This document shows, piece after piece, positions 3,569 to 43,395 of a stretch of 64,000 nucleotides of DNA. The notes beneath the pieces were generated by a model. The model did no database searches, was not told the origin of the DNA, and saw only the letters and a program-made list of their open reading frames with translations. The stretch is from assembly GCA_037137655.1 (NCBI GenBank), contig JBAXJX010000002.1:37730-101729 (forward strand), read 5' to 3'. Made by a program: the position numbers and the translations under genes. Each line of letters begins with the position of its first letter. Position 1 is the stretch's first letter. Source of the DNA: Candidatus Falkowbacteria bacterium. Lineage in GTDB: Bacteria; Patescibacteriota; Patescibacteriia; Patescibacteriales; UBA12465.

Positions 3569-4654
3569 TTATGCCACTTTTACATCAGGCATATTAATTT
3601 TATCCATAATCATCTTTCTAACACGAGCCATCAATTTAGCGTCATCTTTCAAGAACTGTTTAGCAGTTTCCCGTCCAACTCCAAGTTTTAAATCACCCAT
3701 AGTGTAGGAAGCGCCAGACTTTTTAACAATGCCGTGTTCAACAGCAAGATCTAATAAATCACCGGCAATGGAAATACCCTCATTATACATGATATCAAAT
3801 TCAGCTGTTTTAAACGGCGCCGCTACCTTGTTTTTGACAATCTTAGCTTTCACCCGATTACCAATAATCTTTTCGCCTTGTTTAAGTTGAGCGGCTCGAC
3901 GAACTTCCACGCGCACTGAACAGTAAAACTTCAAAGCATTACCGCCAGTGGTTGTTTCAGGACTACCAAAGAACACCCCAATTTTATTTCTAATCTGATT
4001 AATAAAAATAACAATCGTATTGGTCTTGGAAACGATACCGGTTAATTTACGTAGAGCTTGACTCATCAAACGAGCTTGCAAGCCCATGTGCTGATCGCCC
4101 ATATCGCCCTCAATTTCCTTCTGTGGCACTAAAGCGGCCACGGAATCGATAACTACCACATCAACCGCATTAGAACGCACCAGCGTCTCTACAATCTCTA
4201 AGGCTTGTTCACCTGTGTCAGGCTGTGAAATTAATAAATCCTTAATATTCACACCGATCTTTTGAGCATAATCTGGATCCAAAGCATGCTCCGCATCCAC
4301 GAAGGCGGCAATACCACCCAATTTTTGTACTTCAGCCACAATATGTTGAGCTAAAGTTGTTTTACCAGATGATTCTGGTCCAAAAATCTCAATAATGCGA
4401 CCCCGAGGTACACCGCCAATACCAAAAGCAAGGTCTAATGATAAACATCCAGTGGAAACCGCATCGACATCAGTCTTGCGAGCATCACCAAATTTCATAA
4501 TTGAACCTTCACCAAATTTACTTCTAATTTGACTCATAGCTTCGGAAGCCGCCTCTTGTTTCTTGGCCGACTCCTTGTCCTTAGCGATAGTGTCCTTGTC
4601 TTTAACAACAAGCTCTTTAACACTCTCTGGAATCACTTTTTTCTCCTTCTCCAT
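3569..4654 (-). CDS. recA: Recombinase RecA
   Basis: Walker [11 protein letters not shown], then [10 protein letters not shown] and [13 protein letters not shown]. The track ORF begins at a TTG (4684); the ATG at 4654 (MEKEKKV) is the likelier start. Confidence 0.95.
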
Positions 4655-8966: not shown

Positions 8967-10121
8967 TTAGTTTCCAACTGCTGGATCATTTAAAGCTAAT
9001 TCAGCTGTTTCACGAGTGATCAATTCTGCATCATAAAGTTCTTTGATACTACGTGATAAAGTTCTCATGCCATCTTTATAGCTAGTTTCAATTACACTCT
9101 TAAGTTGGGAAGTTTTTTGCTCTCGAATCAAATTGGCTACAGCCGAATTTCTAATCATAATTTCACGAGCAGCTACGCGGCCACCACCAGCTTTTGGTAA
9201 TAAGCGTTGGGAAATTACCGCTGCTAAAATCATTGATAATTGAGAACGAATTTGGCCTTGTTGGTGGGGCGGAAAAATATCGATCATACGATCCACAGTT
9301 TGAGCGGCACTATAAGTATGTAATGTTGCCAAAACCAAGTGACCAGTTTCTGCCAAAGTAATTGCGGTAGCAATAGTTTCTAAATCGCGCATTTCTCCCA
9401 CCATCACCACATCAGGATCTTGACGCAAAATATGTTTCAAGCCATCACCAAAAGTTAACATATCAAAACCTAATTGACGTTGAGCAATAACACTCTTGTC
9501 AGATTTAAATAAGTATTCAATTGGATCTTCTAAAGTGATAATATTATAATTAAAATTCTTGTTTAAATATTCTACCATTGAAGCTAATGTTGTTGATTTA
9601 CCACAACCAGTTGGACCAGTTAATAAAACTAAGCCTTGGTTCATTGATAACAAATTATAAATAACATCAGGCATGTTAATATTGTCCAGAGTCGGAATAA
9701 TATCAGAAATAACACGAGCTGATAGACGGAAGCTATCACGTTCATGTGACAAGTTAACACGATAACGACGATCTTCAACGCTATAACCAAAATCTAAATC
9801 TTTCTCGGCCAAGAATCGAGTTTTTTGTTCCTTAGTTAACATATCGTTAACCATTTTTTCCAAAGCATTATCGGTTACAAGCTTAGCATCAGAATAATCA
9901 GCATAAGAAATATCTTTTAAAAATTTTCCATCAGCCAATAATGATTTAATATTAGCACTGATTTTTTCGGCACCATCCTCTCCTAATAAATCACCTCCAG
10001 CCACCATATCCAAAGGCAATAGCTCACCATCAATTCTAACGATTGGTGGCATACCTTTTACGATATGCAAATCAGAAGCACCACACAAAGTCGCAGTCTT
10101 TAAAAGTTTATTGATATTCAT
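8967..10121 (-). CDS. pilT: Type IV pilus retraction ATPase PilT-like
   Basis: Walker A GPTGCGKSTT, then ITLEDPIEY, DVVMVGEMRD and GHLVLATLHT. Confidence 0.9.
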   Translation of the reverse strand: MNINKLLKTATLCGASDLHIVKGMPPIVRIDGELLPLDMVAGGDLLGEDGAEKISANIKSLLADGKFLKDISYADYSDAKLVTDNALEKMVNDMLTKEQKTRFLAEKDLDFGYSVEDRRYRVNLSHERDSFRLSARVISDIIPTLDNINMPDVIYNLLSMNQGLVLLTGPTGCGKSTTLASMVEYLNKNFNYNIITLEDPIEYLFKSDKSVIAQRQLGFDMLTFGDGLKHILRQDPDVVMVGEMRDLETIATAITLAETGHLVLATLHTYSAAQTVDRMIDIFPPHQQGQIRSQLSMILAAVISQRLLPKAGGGRVAAREIMIRNSAVANLIREQKTSQLKSVIETSYKDGMRTLSRSIKELYDAELITRETAELALNDPAVGN

Positions 10122-13114: not shown

Positions 13115-14500
13115 TTAATTGCGAATACAGCGAATTGGGAAGCCATTGCCTTCTGGGGCTGAGGCTGAATAAATATATGCATTACTATAGGTAACCCTAT
13201 TATAATCTGCCCTAAAGTCAGAACCTCCATAAGTACTTGCGCCATTTGCTATCCATAAATAAGCGTCGATATTTCTACTGTAAAAAGCACCGTCAGCGGC
13301 GCGTTCACCGGAAAGCAAAAGATTAAATCCACTCATACCACAAATACCATCATTTGGATTAACGCAACCATTATTGCCAGAAACAGGATTGTTAAGCGCT
13401 TTTTTAAAACTATCACCAGCCGGAGCACATGTCCAAGACATACCGTTACCGCAAGCGCCTGTAGCTAATGCTGTTTTTATACCTAAATATTCGGTCTTAC
13501 TTGGAAGGTGCCAGCCACTTGGACAAATACCTTGACGTGAAGTACTGTCTGGATCAGCAAAATTACAATCACTATACCCAGTCACACTCGCCACACAAGT
13601 AGTACCATCACAAACATGGGAAGTGGCCTGACAATGATTAGGCAAACCCATAGCCATGGTCCACTCATATAAACCACCATCCGTAGCACAATTAGCCGCA
13701 TCATTATTATAGCAATATTTTTCTGGATTATTTACGGGACTAGTACTGGTCTGACAAGACCAATATCCGTTATTATTGTAGCCAACGCAGCCACTCTGAG
13801 TTGATGAAGCACTATTAACCATGGTTCCAATATTTAAATTCTTGGCAAGTAAAATTTTACCATTAATAGTAACAGTTGGGTAATTTTCACCGCCATAAGA
13901 ACAAGATGATTCACCTAAAGTACTAGCTGAACATGGAGCTGCTGGTGGGCTCTGGCAAACGCCAGCACTACAAACCTGACCGCCCGTACAAGCTGGGCGA
14001 CAAGAAACACCAGCCACATAGAATCCACCATCTTTAATCCAACCACAATCACCTGGCATATTAATTCCAGCCGGTGAAGCACAATGTCCACCAGCAGGCA
14101 TACCACCAACCGGACCACCAAGACAATAAGAAATAGTGTAAGATGTGCCATCGCCACTTGGCGAATAGAAATATTTATTATTATCCGAACTAGAACAACC
14201 GTTATCCGCTGGAGTTGGCGGAGTTGGAATTATCGCCATATAAGTTGTAGTACCGTTAGTGGAAGTAGAATAAATCGAACCAGCGGCAAGCTCGCTTGCA
14301 GTTGGATATCTATTTTGATCGTTAAAAAATAATTCGAGTGCCGTTTGCATTTGTTTCACATCAGCCACACGGCGCGCATCACGAGACTTAGCTCGCGCGC
14401 TTTGCAATGCTATCGTAGCCATCGTAGCCAAAATACCAATAATGGCTATAACAACAAGAAGCTCGATCAAAGTAAAAGCGCGTAATTTTCTACGAGTCAT
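13115..14500 (-). CDS. Type IV pilin-like protein fused to a FISUMP-like (Fibrobacter succinogenes major paralogous) Cys-rich domain
   Basis: Prepilin motif AFTLIELLVVIAIIGILA. C-terminal NYPTVTINGK..AKNLNIGT, GGLYEW, GICPSGWHLPSKTEY, and the ending FPIRCIRN. Confidence 0.85.
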   Translation of the reverse strand: MTRRKLRAFTLIELLVVIAIIGILATMATIALQSARAKSRDARRVADVKQMQTALELFFNDQNRYPTASELAAGSIYSTSTNGTTTYMAIIPTPPTPADNGCSSSDNNKYFYSPSGDGTSYTISYCLGGPVGGMPAGGHCASPAGINMPGDCGWIKDGGFYVAGVSCRPACTGGQVCSAGVCQSPPAAPCSASTLGESSCSYGGENYPTVTINGKILLAKNLNIGTMVNSASSTQSGCVGYNNNGYWSCQTSTSPVNNPEKYCYNNDAANCATDGGLYEWTMAMGLPNHCQATSHVCDGTTCVASVTGYSDCNFADPDSTSRQGICPSGWHLPSKTEYLGIKTALATGACGNGMSWTCAPAGDSFKKALNNPVSGNNGCVNPNDGICGMSGFNLLLSGERAADGAFYSRNIDAYLWIANGASTYGGSDFRADYNRVTYSNAYIYSASAPEGNGFPIRCIRN

Positions 14501-19107: not shown

Positions 19108-20271
19108 TTAGTCATGAAGACAGCGAACGGAATAAGCAGAAGTTCTAAGGCCGGAACCGCGCACAACAGAATTAGCATAGTTAGCCCATGGCCAATTATT
19201 AAGAAAACGACCAATGGAATTAGCACTATCAAATTGAGTTGATGACCAAAAATACATAAAGTTTCCACGACCAGAATACGAAGTGCCAGCGCCAGCGCCA
19301 GAATACAAAGCATTTAAATAGCCTGGGGTAGTATTTATAAAAGCTGAAAATGAATTTCCACAAGCGCCGATGTAACGTCCTGCTGGACAATTAGTTTCAG
19401 TGTCATAATTAAGTTCTAAGGTGTGCCAATCCGCATCACTTGGTACGTGCCAATTTGTTGGACAAATACCTTGACGTGGAGAGGTAATATCGCAAGGAGA
19501 AAGACTGTTATGATTATCACAAGCTGCCGGCAAAGCCATGGCGGTGTGCCATTGGTACAAAGCACCATCAGTGGTACATGAATCTGATACATCACCATAA
19601 CAATATTTCTGAAAAGAACTTGCACTAGTCGATGTAGAAAAATCTGCCTGATTAGTTCCACCAGCAATCATTGTGCCGACATTCAAATTCTGGGTAAACC
19701 AACATTGAGTTCCAATTTGAACAGTATTGTAGTTTTGTCCACCGTAAGAAACTTGGTCGCCACAAGAATTAAAACTGGCTGATCCGCTGCCACCAACCAT
19801 GTTGGTTGAAGTTGCCGCTCCAGCACAAGCTAGATTAAACACGCCGTCAGGAGTGGCACATTTATAGCCAGCGGCCATTGATCCGGCTGGACCACCAAGA
19901 CAGTAACCAATGTTGTAAGCCTTACCTTCACTATCAACGGCGTAAGAATAAGTATTAGCGGCTACGTTACATGAACCATCAGTTGGAGTTGGAGCATGTG
20001 GAACGATTTGCATGTAAGTTGTTGTACCGGTAACCGTGGAAGTTGTGAATATGGTGCCAGAGGCAAAAATATTATTTAGTGGATAATGACCGGCGTCATT
20101 GTAATATAGATCGAGAGCGGTTTGGATTTGTTTCACATCCGCTACGCGGCGCGCGTCGCGCGCTTTCGACCGAGCATTGTTTAGTGCGACAATTGCAATA
20201 GTTGCCAAGAGACCAATGATGGCGATAACAACGAGAAGTTCGATGAGTGTAAAAGCTTTTTTGTTTTTCAT
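19108..20271 (-). CDS. Type IV pilin-like protein with a FISUMP-like domain (paralog 2)
   Basis: AFTLIELLVVIAIIGLLA, NYNTVQIGTQCWFTQNLNVGT, GALYQW, GICPTNWHVPSDADW, and the ending YSVRCLHD. Confidence 0.85.
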   Translation of the reverse strand: MKNKKAFTLIELLVVIAIIGLLATIAIVALNNARSKARDARRVADVKQIQTALDLYYNDAGHYPLNNIFASGTIFTTSTVTGTTTYMQIVPHAPTPTDGSCNVAANTYSYAVDSEGKAYNIGYCLGGPAGSMAAGYKCATPDGVFNLACAGAATSTNMVGGSGSASFNSCGDQVSYGGQNYNTVQIGTQCWFTQNLNVGTMIAGGTNQADFSTSTSASSFQKYCYGDVSDSCTTDGALYQWHTAMALPAACDNHNSLSPCDITSPRQGICPTNWHVPSDADWHTLELNYDTETNCPAGRYIGACGNSFSAFINTTPGYLNALYSGAGAGTSYSGRGNFMYFWSSTQFDSANSIGRFLNNWPWANYANSVVRGSGLRTSAYSVRCLHD

Positions 20272-20292: not shown

Positions 20293-21510
20293 TTATTGAT
20301 TTTTTATACAACGCACCGAAACACCAACTCCATTTCTCTCATGACATTCATATCCAACATAACCGCCAGAGTAAAAATAATAAGCACAGGTACTTGGATC
20401 ACCAGTATTCGCCACTGTTGATGTCCACATAATAAAATACGCCCCCTTCAAAACAAACGCACTGCCATTCCAATTGGCGGCACCAGCGGCCACAGCATGA
20501 AACTGATTTGTATTCCAAATATAACCATTGTAGCTATTGTAAACGTTACCCCACTCCGACTGACTTGGTACGTGCCAACCAGTAGGACAAATACCCTGAC
20601 CACTTTCAGTCATGGAATATTGTGCCATCTCATTCCATTGATACAAGGCGCCATCACTCTGACAAATAGCACTATCATTATTATAACAATACTTCTCTAA
20701 TAATGAATTATTAGTTTGACTAGTAGCGCCAGTCACAATAGTACCAACATTTAAACTTTGTCTCATCCAACATTGACTACCAATCAGCATAGTATCATAA
20801 GTACAAGTATCATAATCTGGGGCACCAGTATTGCAAGTGTGGCCAGCGACAGTACTTATAGTAGTTGGAGAGCCACAAGCCCAGGCAGTACAAGTTCCGC
20901 CAATACAACTACCACCATTACAATTAGCATCACGTGCACAATATGTACCACCAGCACAAACCGCATCAACCGGGTCACAATTATCACAACAAGCTACCGC
21001 CGCATCAGTACATGAACAGCTTGGCGCCGCAGCCACAACCCCAGCAGATCCAATAGATCCGGGACTAACATAAGCAATGCCAGTTGGTGAAGCATTATTC
21101 ACACCAGAACGTAAAGATCCGGACGGACCACCGAGACAAAAATTCAAAGAATAATCTGCGCCACCGAAAGAAGAGTATTTATAAACATTATCTGTTGTTG
21201 AGCAGTTATTATCATTTGGAGTTGGTGCAGTTGGAATTTTTACCATATAGCTCGTTGTACCATTAGTGGTGGTAGAATAAATTGATCCAATGCCAAATTC
21301 AGCGGTAGTTGGATATCTACCTTGATCATTAAAAAATAATTCGAGCGCCGTTTGGATTTGTTTCACATCAGCGATGCGGCGCGCGTCACGTGCCTTGGCG
21401 CGAGCGTTTTGTAAGGCGACTACCGCAATCGTTGCCAAGATACCGATAATAGCAATAACAACTAGAAGTTCGATAAGAGTAAAGGCGGATTTTCTGTTTT
21501 TATTTAACAT
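20293..21510 (-). CDS. Type IV pilin-like protein with a FISUMP-like domain (paralog 3)
   Basis: AFTLIELLVVIAIIGILA, MLIGSQCWMRQSLNVGT, GALYQW, GICPTGWHVPSQSEW, and the ending VSVRCIKNQ. It sits 21 nt upstream of paralog 2, so the two probably form an operon. Confidence 0.85.
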   Translation of the reverse strand: MLNKNRKSAFTLIELLVVIAIIGILATIAVVALQNARAKARDARRIADVKQIQTALELFFNDQGRYPTTAEFGIGSIYSTTTNGTTSYMVKIPTAPTPNDNNCSTTDNVYKYSSFGGADYSLNFCLGGPSGSLRSGVNNASPTGIAYVSPGSIGSAGVVAAAPSCSCTDAAVACCDNCDPVDAVCAGGTYCARDANCNGGSCIGGTCTAWACGSPTTISTVAGHTCNTGAPDYDTCTYDTMLIGSQCWMRQSLNVGTIVTGATSQTNNSLLEKYCYNNDSAICQSDGALYQWNEMAQYSMTESGQGICPTGWHVPSQSEWGNVYNSYNGYIWNTNQFHAVAAGAANWNGSAFVLKGAYFIMWTSTVANTGDPSTCAYYFYSGGYVGYECHERNGVGVSVRCIKNQ

Positions 21511-30402: not shown

Positions 30403-30445
30403 AATTTATTCAGCTTTAAAGGTACATATTATTTTCTCTTTTTAA

Positions 30446-30474
30446 ATTATACCATATTTTGGAGATTGTGTCAT
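30446..30474 (-). promoter_or_regulatory. Promoter of receiver-like gene A
   Basis: On the minus strand, ATGACA, 17-nt spacer ending in TGG, TATAAT. The 5' UTR contains ATATGTACCTTTAAA, also present upstream of paralog B. Confidence 0.6.
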
Positions 30475-30505
30475 TAATAAAAATCTTTTATAAAAAATGT
30501 TTTCT

Positions 30506-30514
30506 TGCTATACT
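30506..30514 (+). promoter_or_regulatory. Extended -10 promoter giving a leaderless TrmB-family mRNA
   Basis: TGCTATACT ends 6 nt before the ATG at 30521. Confidence 0.5.
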
Positions 30515-30520
30515 ATCAAT

Positions 30521-31273
30521 ATGATAAAAAACTTTCTCCAAAATGTCGGTCTAAACGATAAAGAAATAAAAGTATATTTAGAATTATTACGAGTGGAAAA
30601 CGACTCTGTTTTAGATTTGTCCAAAAAGACCAAAATCTTACGTACTTCTATTTATCCAATTTTAGATTCCCTAAAAAGTAAGGGCTTAATTGTTGAAGTG
30701 AAAGTTGGGGCTAAAATTCGTTTTCAAGCTGAAGCGCCGGAAAAAATTGAAACTTACATTGAAACTCAAAAAATAAAGCTAGATGAACAAGCTCAATTAG
30801 CCAACGAATATATTCCTCAATTAAAAAGCATGTCCCGCCAAACCGGCGAAAAACCGATCGTTAAAGTGTATGAAGGGCGAGAGGGAATATTCAAAGCCAA
30901 TGAAGAGTCTTTTGGTTATGGAAATATATCGGATGATGACACTGCCTACTACATTTACCCGTTTGATCTATTAGAAAATCTTTTCTCAAATGAAGAATTG
31001 AAAAAAGGCACTAAGCAAAGAACTGCTAGAAAAATAAAATCAGAAACTTTATACACATATTCTAAAGGGGAAAGGACTCCAAGTGAAAATTCTAAAAGAA
31101 TAAAGATTAATGAAAAAAAATATCCCCTCACTTGTGACATCAGCATTCATAAAGATAAAGTTAGAATTAACACCTTAGGAAAATCATTATCATCACTAGT
31201 AATAAAAAGTCAGGATATCGCCGACACTCTAAAATCTCTCTTCAAAATAGCTTTCGACAATTATAAAGATTAA
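30521..31273 (+). CDS. TrmB-family winged-helix transcriptional regulator (paralog 1)
   Basis: N-terminal HTH LGLNDKEIKVYLELLR..LSKKTKILRTSIYPILDSLKSKGLI. The ATG at 30521 (MIKNF) fits the promoter better than the track start at 30497. Confidence 0.8.
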   Translation: MIKNFLQNVGLNDKEIKVYLELLRVENDSVLDLSKKTKILRTSIYPILDSLKSKGLIVEVKVGAKIRFQAEAPEKIETYIETQKIKLDEQAQLANEYIPQLKSMSRQTGEKPIVKVYEGREGIFKANEESFGYGNISDDDTAYYIYPFDLLENLFSNEELKKGTKQRTARKIKSETLYTYSKGERTPSENSKRIKINEKKYPLTCDISIHKDKVRINTLGKSLSSLVIKSQDIADTLKSLFKIAFDNYKD

Positions 31274-31274
31274 A

Positions 31275-31600
31275 AAATAAGGGACTGTATTGCTACAGTC
31301 CCAGTTTTGATTTTTTGAGGCAACACATGAGGCCTCGTCTACAAAATGACATAAAAAACAATTTTTTTTGTTTTTTACCGTCTGATCACTTTTGTGATCT
31401 TTCATTTTTGTTAATCACCCATTACTTTAAAATTTAAGGGTTGAACAACTACTTAGATATTTATTGTCAATTAATATTAACTAAAAATCTCGATCATGAA
31501 CTAATATTTTTAAATTCACGGAGGGGTATCCTTGATACCCCGACCGTAAAATATATTAGTCGTTCATGGCTAAAACTTTATGGTTAAATACTAAGTTAAC
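31275..31600 (-). ncRNA. Candidate ORF-free minus-strand transcript convergent with the TrmB gene
   Basis: Runs from the consensus promoter at 31608-31636 to the shared terminator at 31281-31316. Contains a GC-rich interrupted 12-bp hairpin (31518-31547) and a GATCAC-tttt-GTGATC hairpin. Only short ORFs are present. Confidence 0.35.
31281..31316. terminator. Bidirectional terminator after the TrmB gene
   Basis: GGGACTGTA-ttgc-TACAGTCCC with T-runs on both strands. Confidence 0.75.
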
Positions 31601-31607
31601 AAAAAGT

Positions 31608-31636
31608 ATTGTATCACACAAAACAATAAGTGTCAA
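31608..31636 (-). promoter_or_regulatory. Near-consensus promoter with no downstream ORF
   Basis: On the minus strand, TTGACA, 17-nt spacer ending in TGA, TACAAT. Confidence 0.6.
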
Positions 31637-31747
31637 TAGTTAATAAAAAAATGTCAAAAATAAATATCATTTTTTTAACAATATAAAAAATTAATCCTGT
31701 GGATAAGTCAGAATATAGTCAATAATTTAAAACATTTAATTGAACAA

Positions 31748-31775
31748 AAAGCCTAAATAATTTGGGCTTTTTTTA
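31748..31775 (+). terminator. Hairpin plus T-run in the non-coding gap (usable on either strand)
   Basis: AAAGCCT-loop-GGGCTTT followed by TTTTTT. The complementary strand also ends in TTTTGTT. Confidence 0.5.
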
Positions 31776-31803
31776 ATATTTTAATAAAAACTGACAAAAG
31801 GTA

Positions 31804-31832
31804 TTGACATTTATGTTTTTGCATGCTATTGT
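31804..31832 (+). promoter_or_regulatory. Promoter of the island's rightward transcription unit
   Basis: TTGACA (31804-31809), 17-nt spacer ending in TGC, TATTGT (31827-31832). Confidence 0.6.
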
Positions 31833-31838
31833 TTGTTT

Positions 31839-32184
31839 ACAATTCATTAAAAACATGGTCCATTAATTTTCTGATTTATGTTTATAAGCTACTGAGCTTT
31901 AAATAGCCAGAAGCGCAAAACACATTTTTTATAATCACGCTTGTCTTTATGCCTTATCGGCATAAACCAGAAAATTTTTGGACACCGGTTTATAGATCCC
32001 ACGTAAAGGCGTGGAAAACTGATAAAAGTCAGTCCGGGATATACGATATGAATTACAGAAAACTTACCGCCGCCGACCAACTGTTACTAGCTAACGGTTT
32101 CAACCTTAATGGAAGTCCAAAAGGTGAAAAGTCACAAAGCTTACGAGCTGTGATTAATACTCCAATGGGAAACCGGAGGTAAAG
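31839..32184 (+). ncRNA. Candidate structured leader or ncRNA (unique 5' segment of the island transcript)
   Basis: GC-enriched compared with its surroundings. Perfect 8-bp hairpin TTTATGCC/GGCATAAA (31946-31966), whose 3' arm can alternatively pair with GGTTTAT (31987-31993). Further hairpins CCACG/CGTGG and CTGA/TCAG. Overlapping ORFs on both strands (77 and 63 aa) make coding doubtful. Confidence 0.35.
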
Positions 32185-32565
32185 AATGTAGGCCACCGTT
32201 CCGGTTAAAACGGCCTAGCGATTTTTGGCGAAACCAATTTCTACGCTAGTTCTCTGTCTTTCTTTTGATTAATTCTCATTATGGGGCCAGCAGCCACATA
32301 ATGAGATTATCAAAATCGAGGCTTTTCCCATGTGCACGTGGGTAATTAGATTTGTATGTTTTACTATTACTCGAGGATAAAACAAGCCTTAAGTGATCAC
32401 AAAGATACAAAATCTGGGGAAACAATTTTTACTGGCCCGATCAACCGTAAAAAAGAAATTGGCAAAAAAACGGGCAATCGCATTAATTTTTCCAAAGTGA
32501 AAATTTAGTGTCGATTGCCCTCATTATTCAATTCATAATTTTTAAATTGTGAATTGATAGTGAGA
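32185..32565 (+). repeat. Copy A of a ~380-nt non-coding element (candidate structured RNA)
   Basis: Aligns end to end with 32806-33190. The differences are compensatory in at least four helices. No ORF of 60 codons or more on either strand. Confidence 0.6.
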
Positions 32566-32596
32566 AATAGTTCTTTAAACTTAAAAAAATATAACC

Positions 32597-32791
32597 ATGG
32601 AAACGATCATTTTTATTATGGCGATTATAATAATTATTGAAACTACAATTATTATAAACTGGAAACTAAAGAAAAAAATGTCAAAAACACAAAAATCACG
32701 AAACGAGGAGTTTTTTCAAAGTATAAAAGAAACTAACCAATATCTTAAAAGGCTCGAAGAAGAACTACCAGATTTAAATAATCGCAAATAA
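32597..32791 (+). CDS. Small membrane protein candidate (64 aa): one hydrophobic helix plus a charged tail
   Basis: ATG start. N-terminus IIFIMAIIIIIETTIII followed by a K/E-rich segment. It lies exactly between the two element copies and has the shared ATAGTT leader motif 30 nt upstream. Confidence 0.45.
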   Translation: METIIFIMAIIIIIETTIIINWKLKKKMSKTQKSRNEEFFQSIKETNQYLKRLEEELPDLNNRK

Positions 32792-32805
32792 ATAAAATAT
32801 TTAAA

Positions 32806-33190
32806 ATTATAGGTCGCCGTTCCGGGTAAAACGGTCTAGCTATTTGGCGCAACCAATTTCTTAGCTAGTTCTCTGTCTTTATTTTGATGGTGTCACATTA
32901 TGGAGCCAAAGGATACATAGATGTTGATAATTAAAATTAAGGCTATTACTCATGTGCACGTGAGCAATTAGATGATTTTTTTACTCTTGCAAGAGGATGA
33001 TCCAGTTGGACGAACCTTAAGTAATTGTAAAATCTATCTTCTGGAGAAAAAATTTTATTGGTCTGATCAGCCGTAAAAAAGAAATTGGCAAAAAAACGGG
33101 CAAGCACATTATTTTTTCCAAAGTGAAAATTTAGTGTGGCTTGCCCTCATTATTCAATTCATAATTTTCAATTGTGAATTGATAGTGAAA
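32806..33190 (+). repeat. Copy B of the ~380-nt non-coding element
   Basis: See copy A. It starts about 15 nt after the stop of the 64-aa ORF and ends about 40 nt before the next ATG. Confidence 0.6.
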
Positions 33191-33230
33191 AAATGTTATT
33201 TAAAAATTTAAACTTCAAAATCATACTGAC

Positions 33231-33959
33231 ATGGAAAGACATCTGATCAACACCGAACTAGTTTTAGATTTAATCAACGCTTTTTCTAAAGCTTTAATTA
33301 AAAATAAACGCAGCCGAAAAAACGCGGAGATACTAATTTACTACCACACAGAGAAAATTAATTACACTATCGCGAACCTACTAAACCGTCCTGGTAAAGC
33401 TTATAATTTTTATGAAAATAAATTATTTGCCAGACGAGCAGGAAGTGATTATTTTAATCTCGAGTATGTTAACAACATTCCTTTAGAAGAAATCATGACC
33501 AGCGAACAAGTGGTTGAGATTATAAATCTATTCACCAATGTTTTTAAAACTAACTTTTTCAACAAAGCGGTGGCCGAAGCATTATTATCAGATCTAGAGG
33601 CAATTAATGAGGCGGTTGATGGTCTATTTGAGATGGATCCGGCCTTCAATTTATTTGAATACATGATGTTTACTAGAAACCTACCACTTAATGATTTCAA
33701 AGAATACCCACTTAGTGGCGGCAAGATTATTATTTGCACCAACCATAAACTATGCGAATCTTATGGCGTTAAAATTGGCAGTAAAGTTCAAATTAATTCA
33801 ATGACTAATACTAGAGATGTAATTATTGGCGTTGCCCCAAGTCCGCATTCTAATAACAATGAAATAGTTATCTGGCTTAAAAATGATTCCAACGAAATTA
33901 ACAGAGTTGGTTATTTAACATTAAGCGGATTACAACCCCTCGTTATTATCAATGAATAA
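33231..33959 (+). CDS. Hypothetical protein (242 aa): two similar helical modules plus a beta-rich C-terminus
   Basis: ATG start. Internal repeat (ELVLDLINAFSKALIKN.. and EQVVEIINLFTNVFKTN..). No recognisable domain. Confidence 0.65.
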   Translation: MERHLINTELVLDLINAFSKALIKNKRSRKNAEILIYYHTEKINYTIANLLNRPGKAYNFYENKLFARRAGSDYFNLEYVNNIPLEEIMTSEQVVEIINLFTNVFKTNFFNKAVAEALLSDLEAINEAVDGLFEMDPAFNLFEYMMFTRNLPLNDFKEYPLSGGKIIICTNHKLCESYGVKIGSKVQINSMTNTRDVIIGVAPSPHSNNNEIVIWLKNDSNEINRVGYLTLSGLQPLVIINE

Positions 33960-33999
33960 TATGTAAAAATAGTTTCTTAACCTTTAAAATTATACCGTT

Positions 34000-34365
34000 A
34001 TGATAACCGGAGAAATTACCAACAGAGAATTAATTCATGCAGAATTAATTTTAAACGAGAAAAACAAATGTTCTATCACTGTCGTGCCGAGCATTTATTT
34101 TGAAGATAAAAAAAATGGCGCTGTCGAAGAAGACAGGCACCCCCGATGCGAAGTTTTTGGCGGAGTTGGTCCAAGTCATATTTTCAGAATATTTTGCCTG
34201 CCGAGTATTAGGGCTAAAATAGTTTTAGAAGATTTGGCCATTGCAATAAACGAGTTGCCAAACAATGAAGTTTTATATTTCATTATTGACAAGAATATGA
34301 TGGACGAAGAGTTGAAAAAACTTTTAAACGACGATGAGCGAAAATTCATAATCGTGGTAAGGTAA
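34000..34365 (+). CDS. Hypothetical protein (121 aa)
   Basis: ATG start, ATAGTT leader motif 31 nt upstream, terminator immediately downstream. Confidence 0.6.
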   Translation: MITGEITNRELIHAELILNEKNKCSITVVPSIYFEDKKNGAVEEDRHPRCEVFGGVGPSHIFRIFCLPSIRAKIVLEDLAIAINELPNNEVLYFIIDKNMMDEELKKLLNDDERKFIIVVR

Positions 34366-34402
34366 AAAATAAAGCCCCATTCTTTTGAAAGGGGCTTTTT
34401 AA
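34365..34402. terminator. Bidirectional terminator closing the island operon and receiver-like gene B
   Basis: AAAGCCCC-loop-GGGGCTTT flanked by A and T runs, between convergent genes. Confidence 0.7.
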
Positions 34403-34420
34403 TTTTTGTTTAAAGATTGC

Positions 34421-38435: not shown

Positions 38436-38451
38436 AATGAACCAGAACAAT

Positions 38452-38485
38452 AAAAAAGCCGACTATTTGCGTAGTCGGCTTTTTT
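38452..38485 (-). terminator. Repeated terminator hairpin, copy 1
   Basis: AAAAAAGCCGACTA-tttgcg-TAGTCGGCTTTTTT, downstream of the 38508 ORF. Confidence 0.75.
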
Positions 38486-40044: not shown

Positions 40045-40170
40045 GCGGATAGAAGAAATAGCAATGAAAAATAAAATGACTAAAGCAATGATGTAAAATT
40101 ACATATTTATTTATTAATTATAAGTAGCTACATTGTAACATAAAAATAGAAAAAAGTAAATAGATGATAT

Positions 40171-40204
40171 AAAAAAGCCGACTATTTTGGTAGTCGGCTT
40201 TTTA
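40171..40204 (-). terminator. Repeated terminator hairpin, copy 2
   Basis: AAAAAAGCCGACTA-ttttgg-TAGTCGGCTTTTT, downstream of the 40215 ORF. Confidence 0.75.
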
Positions 40205-42571: not shown

Positions 42572-42660
42572 AAATAAAAAATTATTTTATAAAATTAGCT
42601 AAAAAATTATAGCTATTTTAATTATACCCCCCCCCTGTAAAAAAACAAGTATTACACAAT

Positions 42661-42690
42661 AAAAAAGCCGACTATTTGCGTAGTCGGCTT
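42661..42690 (-). terminator. Repeated terminator hairpin, copy 3
   Basis: AAAAAAGCCGACTA-tttgcg-TAGTCGGCTT, downstream of the 42710 ORF. Confidence 0.7.
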
Positions 42691-42709: not shown

Positions 42710-43324
42710 TTATTTTGTTACGGTTAAACCAATTAACATGCGGTCTTGCCAAGTAGATTTCTTAATATTATCATCAGTGATTTTGCGTAAATAAGTTATT
42801 TTTACATCCATTTCTTCTGGATAATAATAAGTATTCCACTCCCTTGCTTTATTTTCAGCTAATTCAACAATATACTCATAAATATCCGTAAAATTTTCGA
42901 ACATATTGGTTTTAGCCACATCCATAAAACTAAAAGTTATTTTTTCCACTGGAACATGCACAACCGGTTTCTTCTCTGGCTTTTTAATGCCAATCGAATT
43001 ATAACGGATTAATTTAGAAATGTTATACCTTTCATTAGCTAGCGCCATTTCATCTCTAATTTTCTCCGGCTTAATGAATTCAATTTCCATAATTGAAACA
43101 CTGGATAACAATTCATTAACAAGTTCTTTTATTTGCGTAACTCTTTCTTGTCGTTCTTTCTGCAAATCAACCGCCACTTGCTCTGATTTTAGAATAACTT
43201 GTGGTTTTTTATTTTTATACACCGTCTTATATTCACTCAAGGCGATAGATTCAATCATTATTTTATAAAAATAAGCTGTTGCCGGATTAATACCTGCTGT
43301 CGGTTTTGAAACTGCTGTTTCCAT
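42710..43324 (-). CDS. Hypothetical protein (204 aa)
   Basis: ATG start. No recognisable domain. Confidence 0.6.
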   Translation of the reverse strand: METAVSKPTAGINPATAYFYKIMIESIALSEYKTVYKNKKPQVILKSEQVAVDLQKERQERVTQIKELVNELLSSVSIMEIEFIKPEKIRDEMALANERYNISKLIRYNSIGIKKPEKKPVVHVPVEKITFSFMDVAKTNMFENFTDIYEYIVELAENKAREWNTYYYPEEMDVKITYLRKITDDNIKKSTWQDRMLIGLTVTK

Positions 43325-43395
43325 GGTTATATATTTTAGTTAAAGAACTAGTACCTCTCTAAAATTAAACTACCCTAGAATATAATTTTTGTCAA

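Follow-up and report, generated by a model that had tools for sequence, protein, structure and literature searches.

The stretch of DNA considered here, hereafter the window, comprises 64,000 nt of a Candidatus Falkowbacteria bacterium assembly (GCA_037137655.1, contig JBAXJX010000002.1), and on its plus strand it carries a small unit in which open reading frames (ORFs) alternate with two copies, A and B, of a long non-coding element, in the order ORF77, A, ORF64, B, ORF242 and ORF121 (Table 1). Copy A spans 32185-32570 and copy B 32806-33195, and the two align end to end (MAFFT) with an identity of about 77-80%. Each copy appears to be tripartite, with a 5' domain of about 275 nt predicted to form many helices, a 3' module of about 100 nt made of two hairpins, Pa and Pb, and an AU-rich gene-start tail of about 35 nt. 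The elements are non-coding and structured on the plus strand. We give an even chance to the reading that they are cis-acting structured segments of the operon mRNA, a leader or intercistronic element that is new and restricted to one lineage, because only the 3' module recurs elsewhere, as tandem units flanked by homologues of the same two genes.

Table 1. Positions in the window of the two elements and of the genes and signals around them.
Feature	Position	Strand	Remarks
TrmB-family helix-turn-helix regulator	30497..31273	+	same family adjoins ORF242 homologues in loci L070 and L072
Promoter-like site TTGACA-17-TATTGT with TG	31804..31832	+	10/12 matches; predicted
ORF77, small basic protein ending ...INTPMGNRR	31949..32182	+	C-terminal half conserved in locus L071
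Copy A, 5' domain	32185..32461	+	predicted multi-helix; closed by long-range helix, 32234-42 with 32454-62
Copy A, 3' module	32462..32563	+	hairpin Pa 32472-32520, hairpin Pb 32521-32563
Copy A, tail	32564..32596	+	AU-rich gene-start region (GAAATAGTTCTTTAAAC...TATAACC), reaches the ORF64 ATG
ORF64, doubtful small ORF with hydrophobic N-terminus	32597..32791	+	codon score 0.125, ambiguous
Copy B, 5' domain	32806..33087	+	closed by helix, 32853-62 with 33079-88
Copy B, 3' module	33088..33188	+	Pa 33098-33146, Pb 33147-33188
Copy B, tail	33189..33230	+	reaches the ORF242 ATG
ORF242, member of a very rare family, motif DDLFEMSPAFNLFEY	33231..33959	+	module precedes it in both organisms
ORF121, last ORF of the unit, orphan	34000..34365	+	preceded solely by the ~40-nt tail motif
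Terminator-like hairpin GCCCC...GGGGC followed by TTTTT	34374..34400	+	from sequence; terminator-like Rfam sub-hits 34357-34400

The repeat itself is unambiguous. A blastn comparison aligns 402 nt of A and B at 79.6% identity, and an nhmmer profile built from the pair recovers each copy from the window with an E-value of about 1e-132. Neither this profile nor a repeat finder detected a third copy within the 64 kb, and the profile scan also led us to reject a degenerate third copy upstream of ORF77. Identity between A and B is patchy: it reaches 91% over the last 127 alignment columns, ranges from 80 to 85% both at the 5' end and in the region of the CATGTGCACGTG hairpin, and drops to about 60% in two internal stretches. 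Three runs of 33, 28 and 25 nt are identical, and three or more identical runs of at least 25 nt arise in 1e-4 of column shuffles under a null of uniform divergence. The two copies are under heterogeneous constraint. Other assemblies are identical to the window across both elements and offer no single-nucleotide polymorphisms within populations that could serve as evidence of covariation; the 5' domain is known from copies A and B only.

Indels between the copies are not multiples of three, and no ORF of 60 codons or more lies within the elements, the longest (50 and 53 codons) not being shared between copies. These properties had been noted in a previous reading of the sequence alone, together with the repeat and its long identical blocks, the alternation of ORFs and elements (which the ORF list bears out) and a 13-bp terminal hairpin, found by an inverted-repeat search in both copies; on all these points we agree with the sequence-only reading. 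Two short ORF-like features were seen at the elements. At the boundary between the ORF77 stop and the element (32175-32191), copy A has a perfect GGAGG 6 nt before an ATG that is directly followed by TAG, a minimal start-stop ORF that is not conserved in copy B. Inside a variable hairpin, 6-codon mini-ORFs occupy the same aligned position in A (32282-32302, ATG GGG CCA GCA GCC ACA TAA) and B (32901-32921, ATG GAG CCA AAG GAT ACA TAG), where they are probably a by-product of a CATTATG/CATAATG stem.

Folding of the elements is far stronger than that of their surroundings. Full-length minimum free energies (MFE) correspond to z-scores of -7.4 for A and -5.1 for B, and those of the 3' 99 nt alone to -9.3 and -9.7, respectively, against values of about 0 +/- 1.5 for neighbouring coding DNA. 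The plus strand folds better than the minus strand, with an MFE of -124.8 (A) and -110.9 (B) kcal/mol versus -103.3 and -79.4 kcal/mol. To follow the fate of individual base pairs, a structure was predicted from one copy alone and then confronted with the 74 substitutions that separate A and B. With the structure taken from A, substitutions break 12 predicted pairs, compared with 27.4 +/- 3.2 under random placement (P < 2e-4), because they avoid stems and tend to be transitions compatible with G-U pairing: 12 single changes stay paired through G-U on the plus strand versus 3 on the minus strand. In the 5' 290 columns, the plus strand has 10 broken pairs versus 20.7 expected (P = 2e-4) and 17 versus 25.6 (P = 0.004), an effect that weakens to P = 0.10 and 0.03 when the substitution sites are held fixed, while the minus strand yields P = 0.016 and 0.25 with random sites and 0.66 and 0.28 with fixed sites. 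Structural support for the 5' domain is thus moderate, with P between 2e-4 and 0.1 according to the null model used.

The differences between A and B had initially been described as compensatory. This description is borne out only in part. What is significant is the small number of broken pairs; double compensatory changes as such number 3-5 versus about 2 under a random-substitution null (P = 0.02-0.4) and are not clearly above chance. The evidence for structure in the comparison of A with B consists of substitutions that spare the stems, transitions compatible with wobble pairing, the asymmetry between the strands and the long identical blocks. The RNAalifold consensus (13 helices, 109 pairs) fits both copies throughout, which it does by construction; it is not a proof. 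Four helices listed in the sequence-only reading occur where it placed them and change as it described, judging from the sequence and the consensus fold: CTAGCG/CGCTAG, the CCCATG-TGCA-CGTGGG hairpin, the outer stem of Pa, and TAGGCC/GGCCTA. A fifth, AGGCTT/AAGCCT replaced by TTAAGG/CCTTAA, is a register shift and not a column-wise covariation. Nor can all of them coexist, as the first and the fourth share the bases CTA. CTAGCG/CGCTAG belongs to a local fold of the first 85 nt, carries a conserved U-rich 3' flank, and competes with a long-range helix of 9-10 bp (CCAATTTCT with AGAAATTGG in copy A) that closes the 5' domain in the full-length fold; this competition may be due to chance. Within the closing helix, copy A is predicted to form the CCCATG-TGCA-CGTGGG hairpin and two long variable hairpins. 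We also observed that the apical part of Pa, UUUUUCCA, which is fully conserved, is complementary over 6-8 bp to the AUGGAAA start of the ORF following each copy (32489-32506 versus 32586-32603; 33111-33118 versus 33232-33239), which may represent an anti-start interaction or a chance match.

The most informative comparison comes from locus L071, a 1.5-kb contig with the order ORF77 homologue, two tandem units of about 95 nt, ORF242 homologue. The contig begins inside an ORF ending in ...RVIINTPMGNGMR*, a homologue of ORF77 over the latter's C-terminal half (43% identity over 42 amino acids, E 8e-9), and the ORF242 homologue is only 33% identical to ORF242. The two units make up the whole 212-nt intergenic spacer. 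Unit 1 has GGGCGAG...TTCGCCC as its first hairpin and unit 2 has GGACGAG...TTCGTCC, the second hairpin of each unit contains TTCAGTCCATAATT...ATTGT, and unit 2 is followed by GTAAATAAATAGAACTTTCAC...ATG, the start of the ORF242 homologue. Both units are homologous to Pa, Pb and the tail of copies A and B (nhmmer E 0.007, twice, and alignment); a 5' domain of the kind seen in the window is absent, and the L071 leader has no Rfam hit. Across the four copies of this core, pairing in Pa and Pb (26 pairs) is maintained at 95%, and 7 pairs have changed on both sides, as in the series GGGCAA/TTGCCC, GGGCGA/TCGCCC and GGACGA/TCGTCC. The covariation score is 0.397 compared with 0.197 +/- 0.044 in shuffles, none of 500 shuffles reaching it, and slid controls of the four-copy alignment contain no double change. 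One U-G wobble at a Pb position is invariant in all four copies. From these comparisons, the two-hairpin 3' module would be the conserved core of the element and the 5' domain a lineage-specific part. Both organisms that bear the module have two core copies, and copies within a genome are more alike than copies between genomes, which indicates independent duplication or concerted evolution; either way, two copies have been retained.

The module in L071 was reached through the ORF242 protein, whereas nucleotide searches yielded no further copies. No copy of the element was present in 139 kb from close relatives. Exact patterns from the conserved blocks returned nothing or chance seeds in viral contigs (5 patterns) and in JGI metagenome contigs (2 patterns), and one 19-mer searched in the GTDB species genomes, among which the source genome is not included, gave 39 loci that were all chance seeds. 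Blastn of the elements against phage and plasmid collections found nothing, and our literature search found no description of the element. At gathering thresholds, an Rfam 15 scan of the window reports one transfer-messenger RNA (tmRNA) and ten tRNAs, all outside the elements. At E-values up to 10, over 31300-34400 and on both strands, only chance-level hits appear, each covering a small part of the sequence, the best being ceN44 and snoR113 (about 70 nt, E 5-6). The elements therefore match no known RNA class, as had been suspected from the sequence alone.

ORF242 was called an orphan by a word-index search, a result corrected by an exhaustive HMMER search, which found six remote homologue clusters of one or two members each (31-40% identity, E 1e-21 to 1e-28). 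The family aligns cleanly around its conserved motif and has no Pfam or PDB relative, and tblastn and pattern searches detected no member in phage and viral collections. All homologues start at the same N-terminus, including those without an upstream element. In L070 and L072, a divergent TrmB gene stands beside the ORF242 homologue and the module is absent; their spacer of about 190 nt holds a promoter-like site placed, as read from the sequence, for a transcript start at the tail motif. Between the two genes lies a conserved inverted repeat, TGTCAATAATTTTGACG or TGTCAATATTTTTGACG (L070 2235-2255, L072 385-405), with the motif TGTCAAT-N-TTGACG, which is likely a TrmB operator; TGTCAA repeats also occur in the window at about 31622-31650. 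In L073-L077, the ORF242 homologue is preceded by a 364-nt gap with a promoter-like site and a structured leader of 250 nt (z -5.0), whose two hairpins, a short GC one and a long AU one, precede TAGTTCTTTAA and the ATGGAAAGA start (P0135 is the homologue in L073). Directly downstream of P0135, at L073 9380-9706 and also in L074, L075 and L077, there is a candidate RNA of about 290 nt (z -7.2 for 9410-9706) with a promoter-like TTGACA...TATACT before it, a terminator-like hairpin and T-run after it, and no Rfam hit. L073 also has two copies of an 82-nt repeat, at 9873-9953 and 4160-4238.

Around the elements, the only good plus-strand promoter-like site upstream of the operon is the one listed in Table 1, which follows a terminator at 31746-31772, and a promoter and terminator scan found no strong internal promoter or canonical terminator between 31832 and 34370. 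The proteins of the operon have no match in Pfam, PHROGs, PADLOC, NCBIfam or PDB, and single-sequence AlphaFold models are too poor to use (predicted local distance difference test of 44 for ORF242 and 36 for ORF121). ORF64 is a singleton in the protein collection and its region is unstructured. Because of its ambiguous codon score, the lack of a homologue in the family loci and the fact that nothing lies between the two L071 units, it is a doubtful gene and may be an AU-rich spacer between the copies. The tail of each copy, about 35 nt after the last hairpin (...ATAGTTCTTTAAAC...TATAACC ATGGAAA), is a gene-start region of a recurrent type, also seen ahead of ORF121, of the unrelated gene 42710-43324 and of ORF242 homologues in other loci. 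Shine-Dalgarno sequences are largely missing from this genome, and a motif TAGTT(C/T)(C/T)TTAA...TATAACC ATG(G)AAA is found 20-35 nt upstream of the starts of unrelated genes (32568-32596, 33970-33999, 43325-43350 on the minus strand and others; L073 8521-8550). With one mismatch allowed it has 33 matches versus 20.4 +/- 4.5 expected, and it may be a promoter element or a translation signal.

The ORF77-ORF121 operon is part of a block of about 4 kb (30403-34420), which also holds the gene for the TrmB regulator and about 0.7 kb of non-coding, structured DNA. Block and element are absent from all ten corresponding loci of relatives, whose pyrophosphatases are 84-93% identical. Where the loci of relatives reach far enough, the order is NusA, pyrophosphatase, one variable gene, trigger factor and SmpB, the variable gene encoding a 140-amino-acid protein, RNase T, DksA/TraR or Fic. 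In the window, the block is flanked by paralogous genes for proteins of 140 and 137 amino acids, 52% identical, with a receiver-domain-like N-terminus and no Pfam hit. The block is therefore a lineage-specific island, occupying a slot of variable content that the pyrophosphatase and trigger factor genes delimit. On the minus strand, the interval separating the TrmB gene from the operon holds a candidate small RNA gene of about 330 nt (31275-31636), with a strong promoter-like TTGACA-17-TACAAT with TG (11/12 matches) at 31636-31608, a terminator at 31302-31281 and no Rfam match; its 31275-31602 portion folds at z -8.7. Other repeats in the window lie apart from the elements. A terminator-like 35-nt hairpin, AAAAAAGCCGACTATTTGCGTAGTCGGCTT, stands downstream of different minus-strand genes at 38447-38481, 40166-40200 and 42656-42690, two of the three being identical. 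Three minus-strand paralogues (13115-14500, 19108-20271 and 20293-21510) share start stretches of 200-300 nt that are 65-80% identical at the DNA level and correspond to repeat families D1, D2 and D4-D6.

Taken as a functional class, a structured cis-acting mRNA leader agrees with what we found, namely a favoured plus strand and a module that precedes ORF242-family genes in two organisms with covariation between them, and the element is most likely a new motif within this known kind, the structured bacterial mRNA leaders. The earlier proposal of a novel large structured RNA therefore survives as regards structure and the lack of an Rfam family, while its free-standing character is not favoured by the comparative data. 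Like the autoregulatory leaders of ribosomal proteins and EAR (eps-associated RNA), the element is a sense-strand, untranslated part of an operon located directly upstream of a cistron, with conserved hairpins tied to one gene family. It differs from them in having no Rfam sequence or structure match, in its much larger size of about 380 nt, in occurring twice per operon, and in that no binder, terminator or start-sequestering helix has been identified. Tandem aptamers of glycine riboswitches and tandem T-boxes also place two homologous units in series, as do A and B and the two L071 units, but here there is no known aptamer core, the units in the window are about 240 nt apart, perhaps with a small ORF between them, and the gene context implies no ligand, all neighbours being of unknown function. 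Alternative pairings exist (CTAGCG/CGCTAG, with its U-rich 3' flank, versus the long-range helix), and no canonical terminator or start-masking helix was found.

Several observations weigh against a cis-acting leader. Co-transcription of the unit is assumed. The codon usage of ORF77 is atypical (score -0.05) and NCBI does not annotate it, although its conservation in L071 speaks for a real gene. The last hairpin has no U-tract and leaves the start codon uncovered, and no standard expression platform is visible. The core is known from four copies in two organisms and the 5' domain from two copies, and the covariation tests are thus weak; related sequences can exceed shuffles without any structure, and a palindromic DNA operator would produce the same covariation in a hairpin. 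The modules are missing in L070 and L072, and a covariance model of the 3' module, run on 248 kb comprising the window, relatives and family loci, recovers none but its four training copies.

If the elements are indeed cis-acting, a single polycistronic transcript of the plus strand would start at the promoter near 31804, run through ORF77, A, ORF64 (if it is a gene), B, ORF242 and ORF121, and end at the terminator near 34390. The paired hairpins could then act as a platform that sets the translation or the stability of the downstream cistron. A hairpin-binding protein might be involved, the obvious candidate being the co-conserved small basic protein of the ORF77 family. Alternatively, a double-strand-specific ribonuclease (RNase) such as RNase III might cut the stems of about 20 bp. 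A cut at the base of Pb would leave a 5' untranslated region of about 40 nt, like that of the ORF242 homologues that lack the module, as judged from their promoter-like sites. The 5' domain might be a lineage-specific sensor or scaffold extension.

It is unlikely, yet worth serious consideration, that the elements are stand-alone or processed non-coding RNAs of about 380 nt that act in trans, for instance as a subunit or scaffold of a ribonucleoprotein with proteins of the ORF242 family, the ORF77 family or both. Their length of several hundred nucleotides, the predicted multi-helix junction with its long-range closing helix and the conserved blocks between variable hairpins recall the ornate OLE, GOLLD, ROOL, HEARO and raiA RNAs, also of unknown function. 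Blocks conserved even within helices suggest sequence-specific contacts, the stems of about 20 bp could serve as processing sites, and other structured non-coding stretches surround ORF242-family genes, such as those described above at 31275-31602 and at L073 9410-9706. Unlike these large RNAs, however, the elements have no Rfam hit and are embedded between the ORFs of an operon, neither being delimited by a promoter or terminator of its own, and they are known from one genome only, with just the 100-nt core in a second. The core lies at a fixed distance before start codons, the tail is a generic gene-start region, and the L071 units are just about 95 nt long and fill the spacer between two genes. 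Direct repeats of structured RNA placed right upstream of a protein gene on the same transcript are also typical of the ToxI antitoxins of the ToxIN, CptIN and TenpIN systems, and a copy number of two falls within their range. Type III antitoxin repeats are about 34-45 nt long, contiguous and followed by a terminator, and the toxin has a ToxN/AbiQ fold. We rejected a type III toxin-antitoxin system on these grounds, since the present units measure 95-380 nt, no terminator follows Pb, and ORF242 has no Pfam, ToxN or PADLOC match.

A bolder proposal, in our view a long shot, is that the elements are the RNA components of a new RNA-protein system of Patescibacteria, processed from the transcript and assembled with proteins. 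In such a system, a TrmB-regulated module may encode a small basic RNA-binding protein of the ORF77 family, an effector of the ORF242 family, of unknown fold, and large structured RNAs; among the latter might be the elements of 380 nt, the minus-strand candidate of 330 nt and the RNA of 290 nt beside the L073 homologue. The variable hairpins of the 5' domain might then confer specificity.

Regulation at the DNA level seems improbable to us. Pb, and perhaps Pa, would in that case be inverted-repeat operators for a dimeric factor, of the TrmB family or another, duplicated together with internal promoters of ORF64 and ORF242. Pb is indeed a 13+13-bp inverted repeat, in both copies its 3' arm overlaps a weak promoter-like TTGATA-16/17-TAAACT/AAAAAT, three loci link a TrmB regulator to ORF242 homologues, and symmetric changes in half-sites are indistinguishable from RNA covariation. 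These internal promoter-like sites score just 9/12, however, and the probable TrmB operator of L070 and L072 is a different motif. The imperfections of the palindrome are all G-U on the plus strand (A-C on the minus strand), including the wobble that is invariant in four copies, and folding is clearly strand-asymmetric. An operator would also leave unexplained the 5' domain of about 275 nt and its structure-sparing substitutions.

We regard as very unlikely that the element is a selfish or neutral repeat, of the repetitive extragenic palindromic (REP), BOX, enterobacterial repetitive intergenic consensus (ERIC) or miniature inverted-repeat transposable element (MITE) type, that was inserted twice and is merely co-transcribed. 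It is hairpin-rich, intergenic and multi-copy, and the island that holds it is lineage-specific and occupies a variable slot, but there are only two adjacent copies in the 64 kb covered of a genome of about 965 kb and none in the relatives, and no terminal inverted repeats or target duplications were found. Furthermore, the core is tied to the same two gene families in a distant organism, as the divergence of the L071 ORF242 homologue attests, which points to long-term retention, and the block-wise conservation argues for selection. A comparison can also be made with arrays of integron attC sites, in which ORFs and imperfect palindromes alternate and orphan genes share one orientation. The attC sites are 57-141 nt long and have RYYYAAC and GTTRRRY cores. 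The element is 380 nt long, no GTTRRRY core occurs at any GTT of copy A, neither core is present, the inverted repeats include no boundary arms, and no tyrosine recombinase or integrase is found among the neighbouring genes; an attC origin was rejected.

Least credible of all, coding sequence in disguise (self-splicing introns that split a gene, a decayed pseudogene, or a conserved small ORF such as a minus-strand MEK(L/I)M.LPVFLPISFLRLI peptide or the 6-codon mini-ORF, in hairpin P4) could draw on a report that introns are frequent in Patescibacteria (PMC13011429) and on minus-strand ORFs at 32397-32495 and 33017-33121 that share 19 of their first 23 residues, but the indels between A and B shift the frame, no group I or group II intron gave a hit on either strand at E up to 10 (Intron_gpI included), the flanking ORFs are complete genes, an in-frame stop (32582-84, read from the sequence) precedes the ORF64 ATG, ORF242 homologues share one N-terminus with or without the element, and the ORF77 homologue has the same C-terminus with its own stop. 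The minus-strand peptide was likewise rejected: its similarity mirrors the 33-nt identical DNA block, its codon scores of 0.00 and -0.38 resemble those of spurious ORFs, and it starts with TTG.

Patescibacteria (the candidate phyla radiation) have genomes of about 1 Mb with very little non-coding DNA, and to our knowledge almost nothing is known of gene regulation in this group. It is unusual for such a streamlined genome that strongly folded non-coding sequence should make up about 1.3 kb of a single operon within a lineage-specific island. The system is very rare: the protein family comprises seven clusters, the RNA core is known so far in four copies on two Patescibacteria-like contigs, and the hosts are uncultivated. 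Our results also illustrate that an element duplicated within a genome can be anchored through the remote protein homology of its neighbours when nucleotide searches fail. In a second organism, the core of the element is again associated with both orphan gene families, and if its role is confirmed, it would represent a new class of structured regulatory RNA and provide a handle on two protein families without known function or fold.

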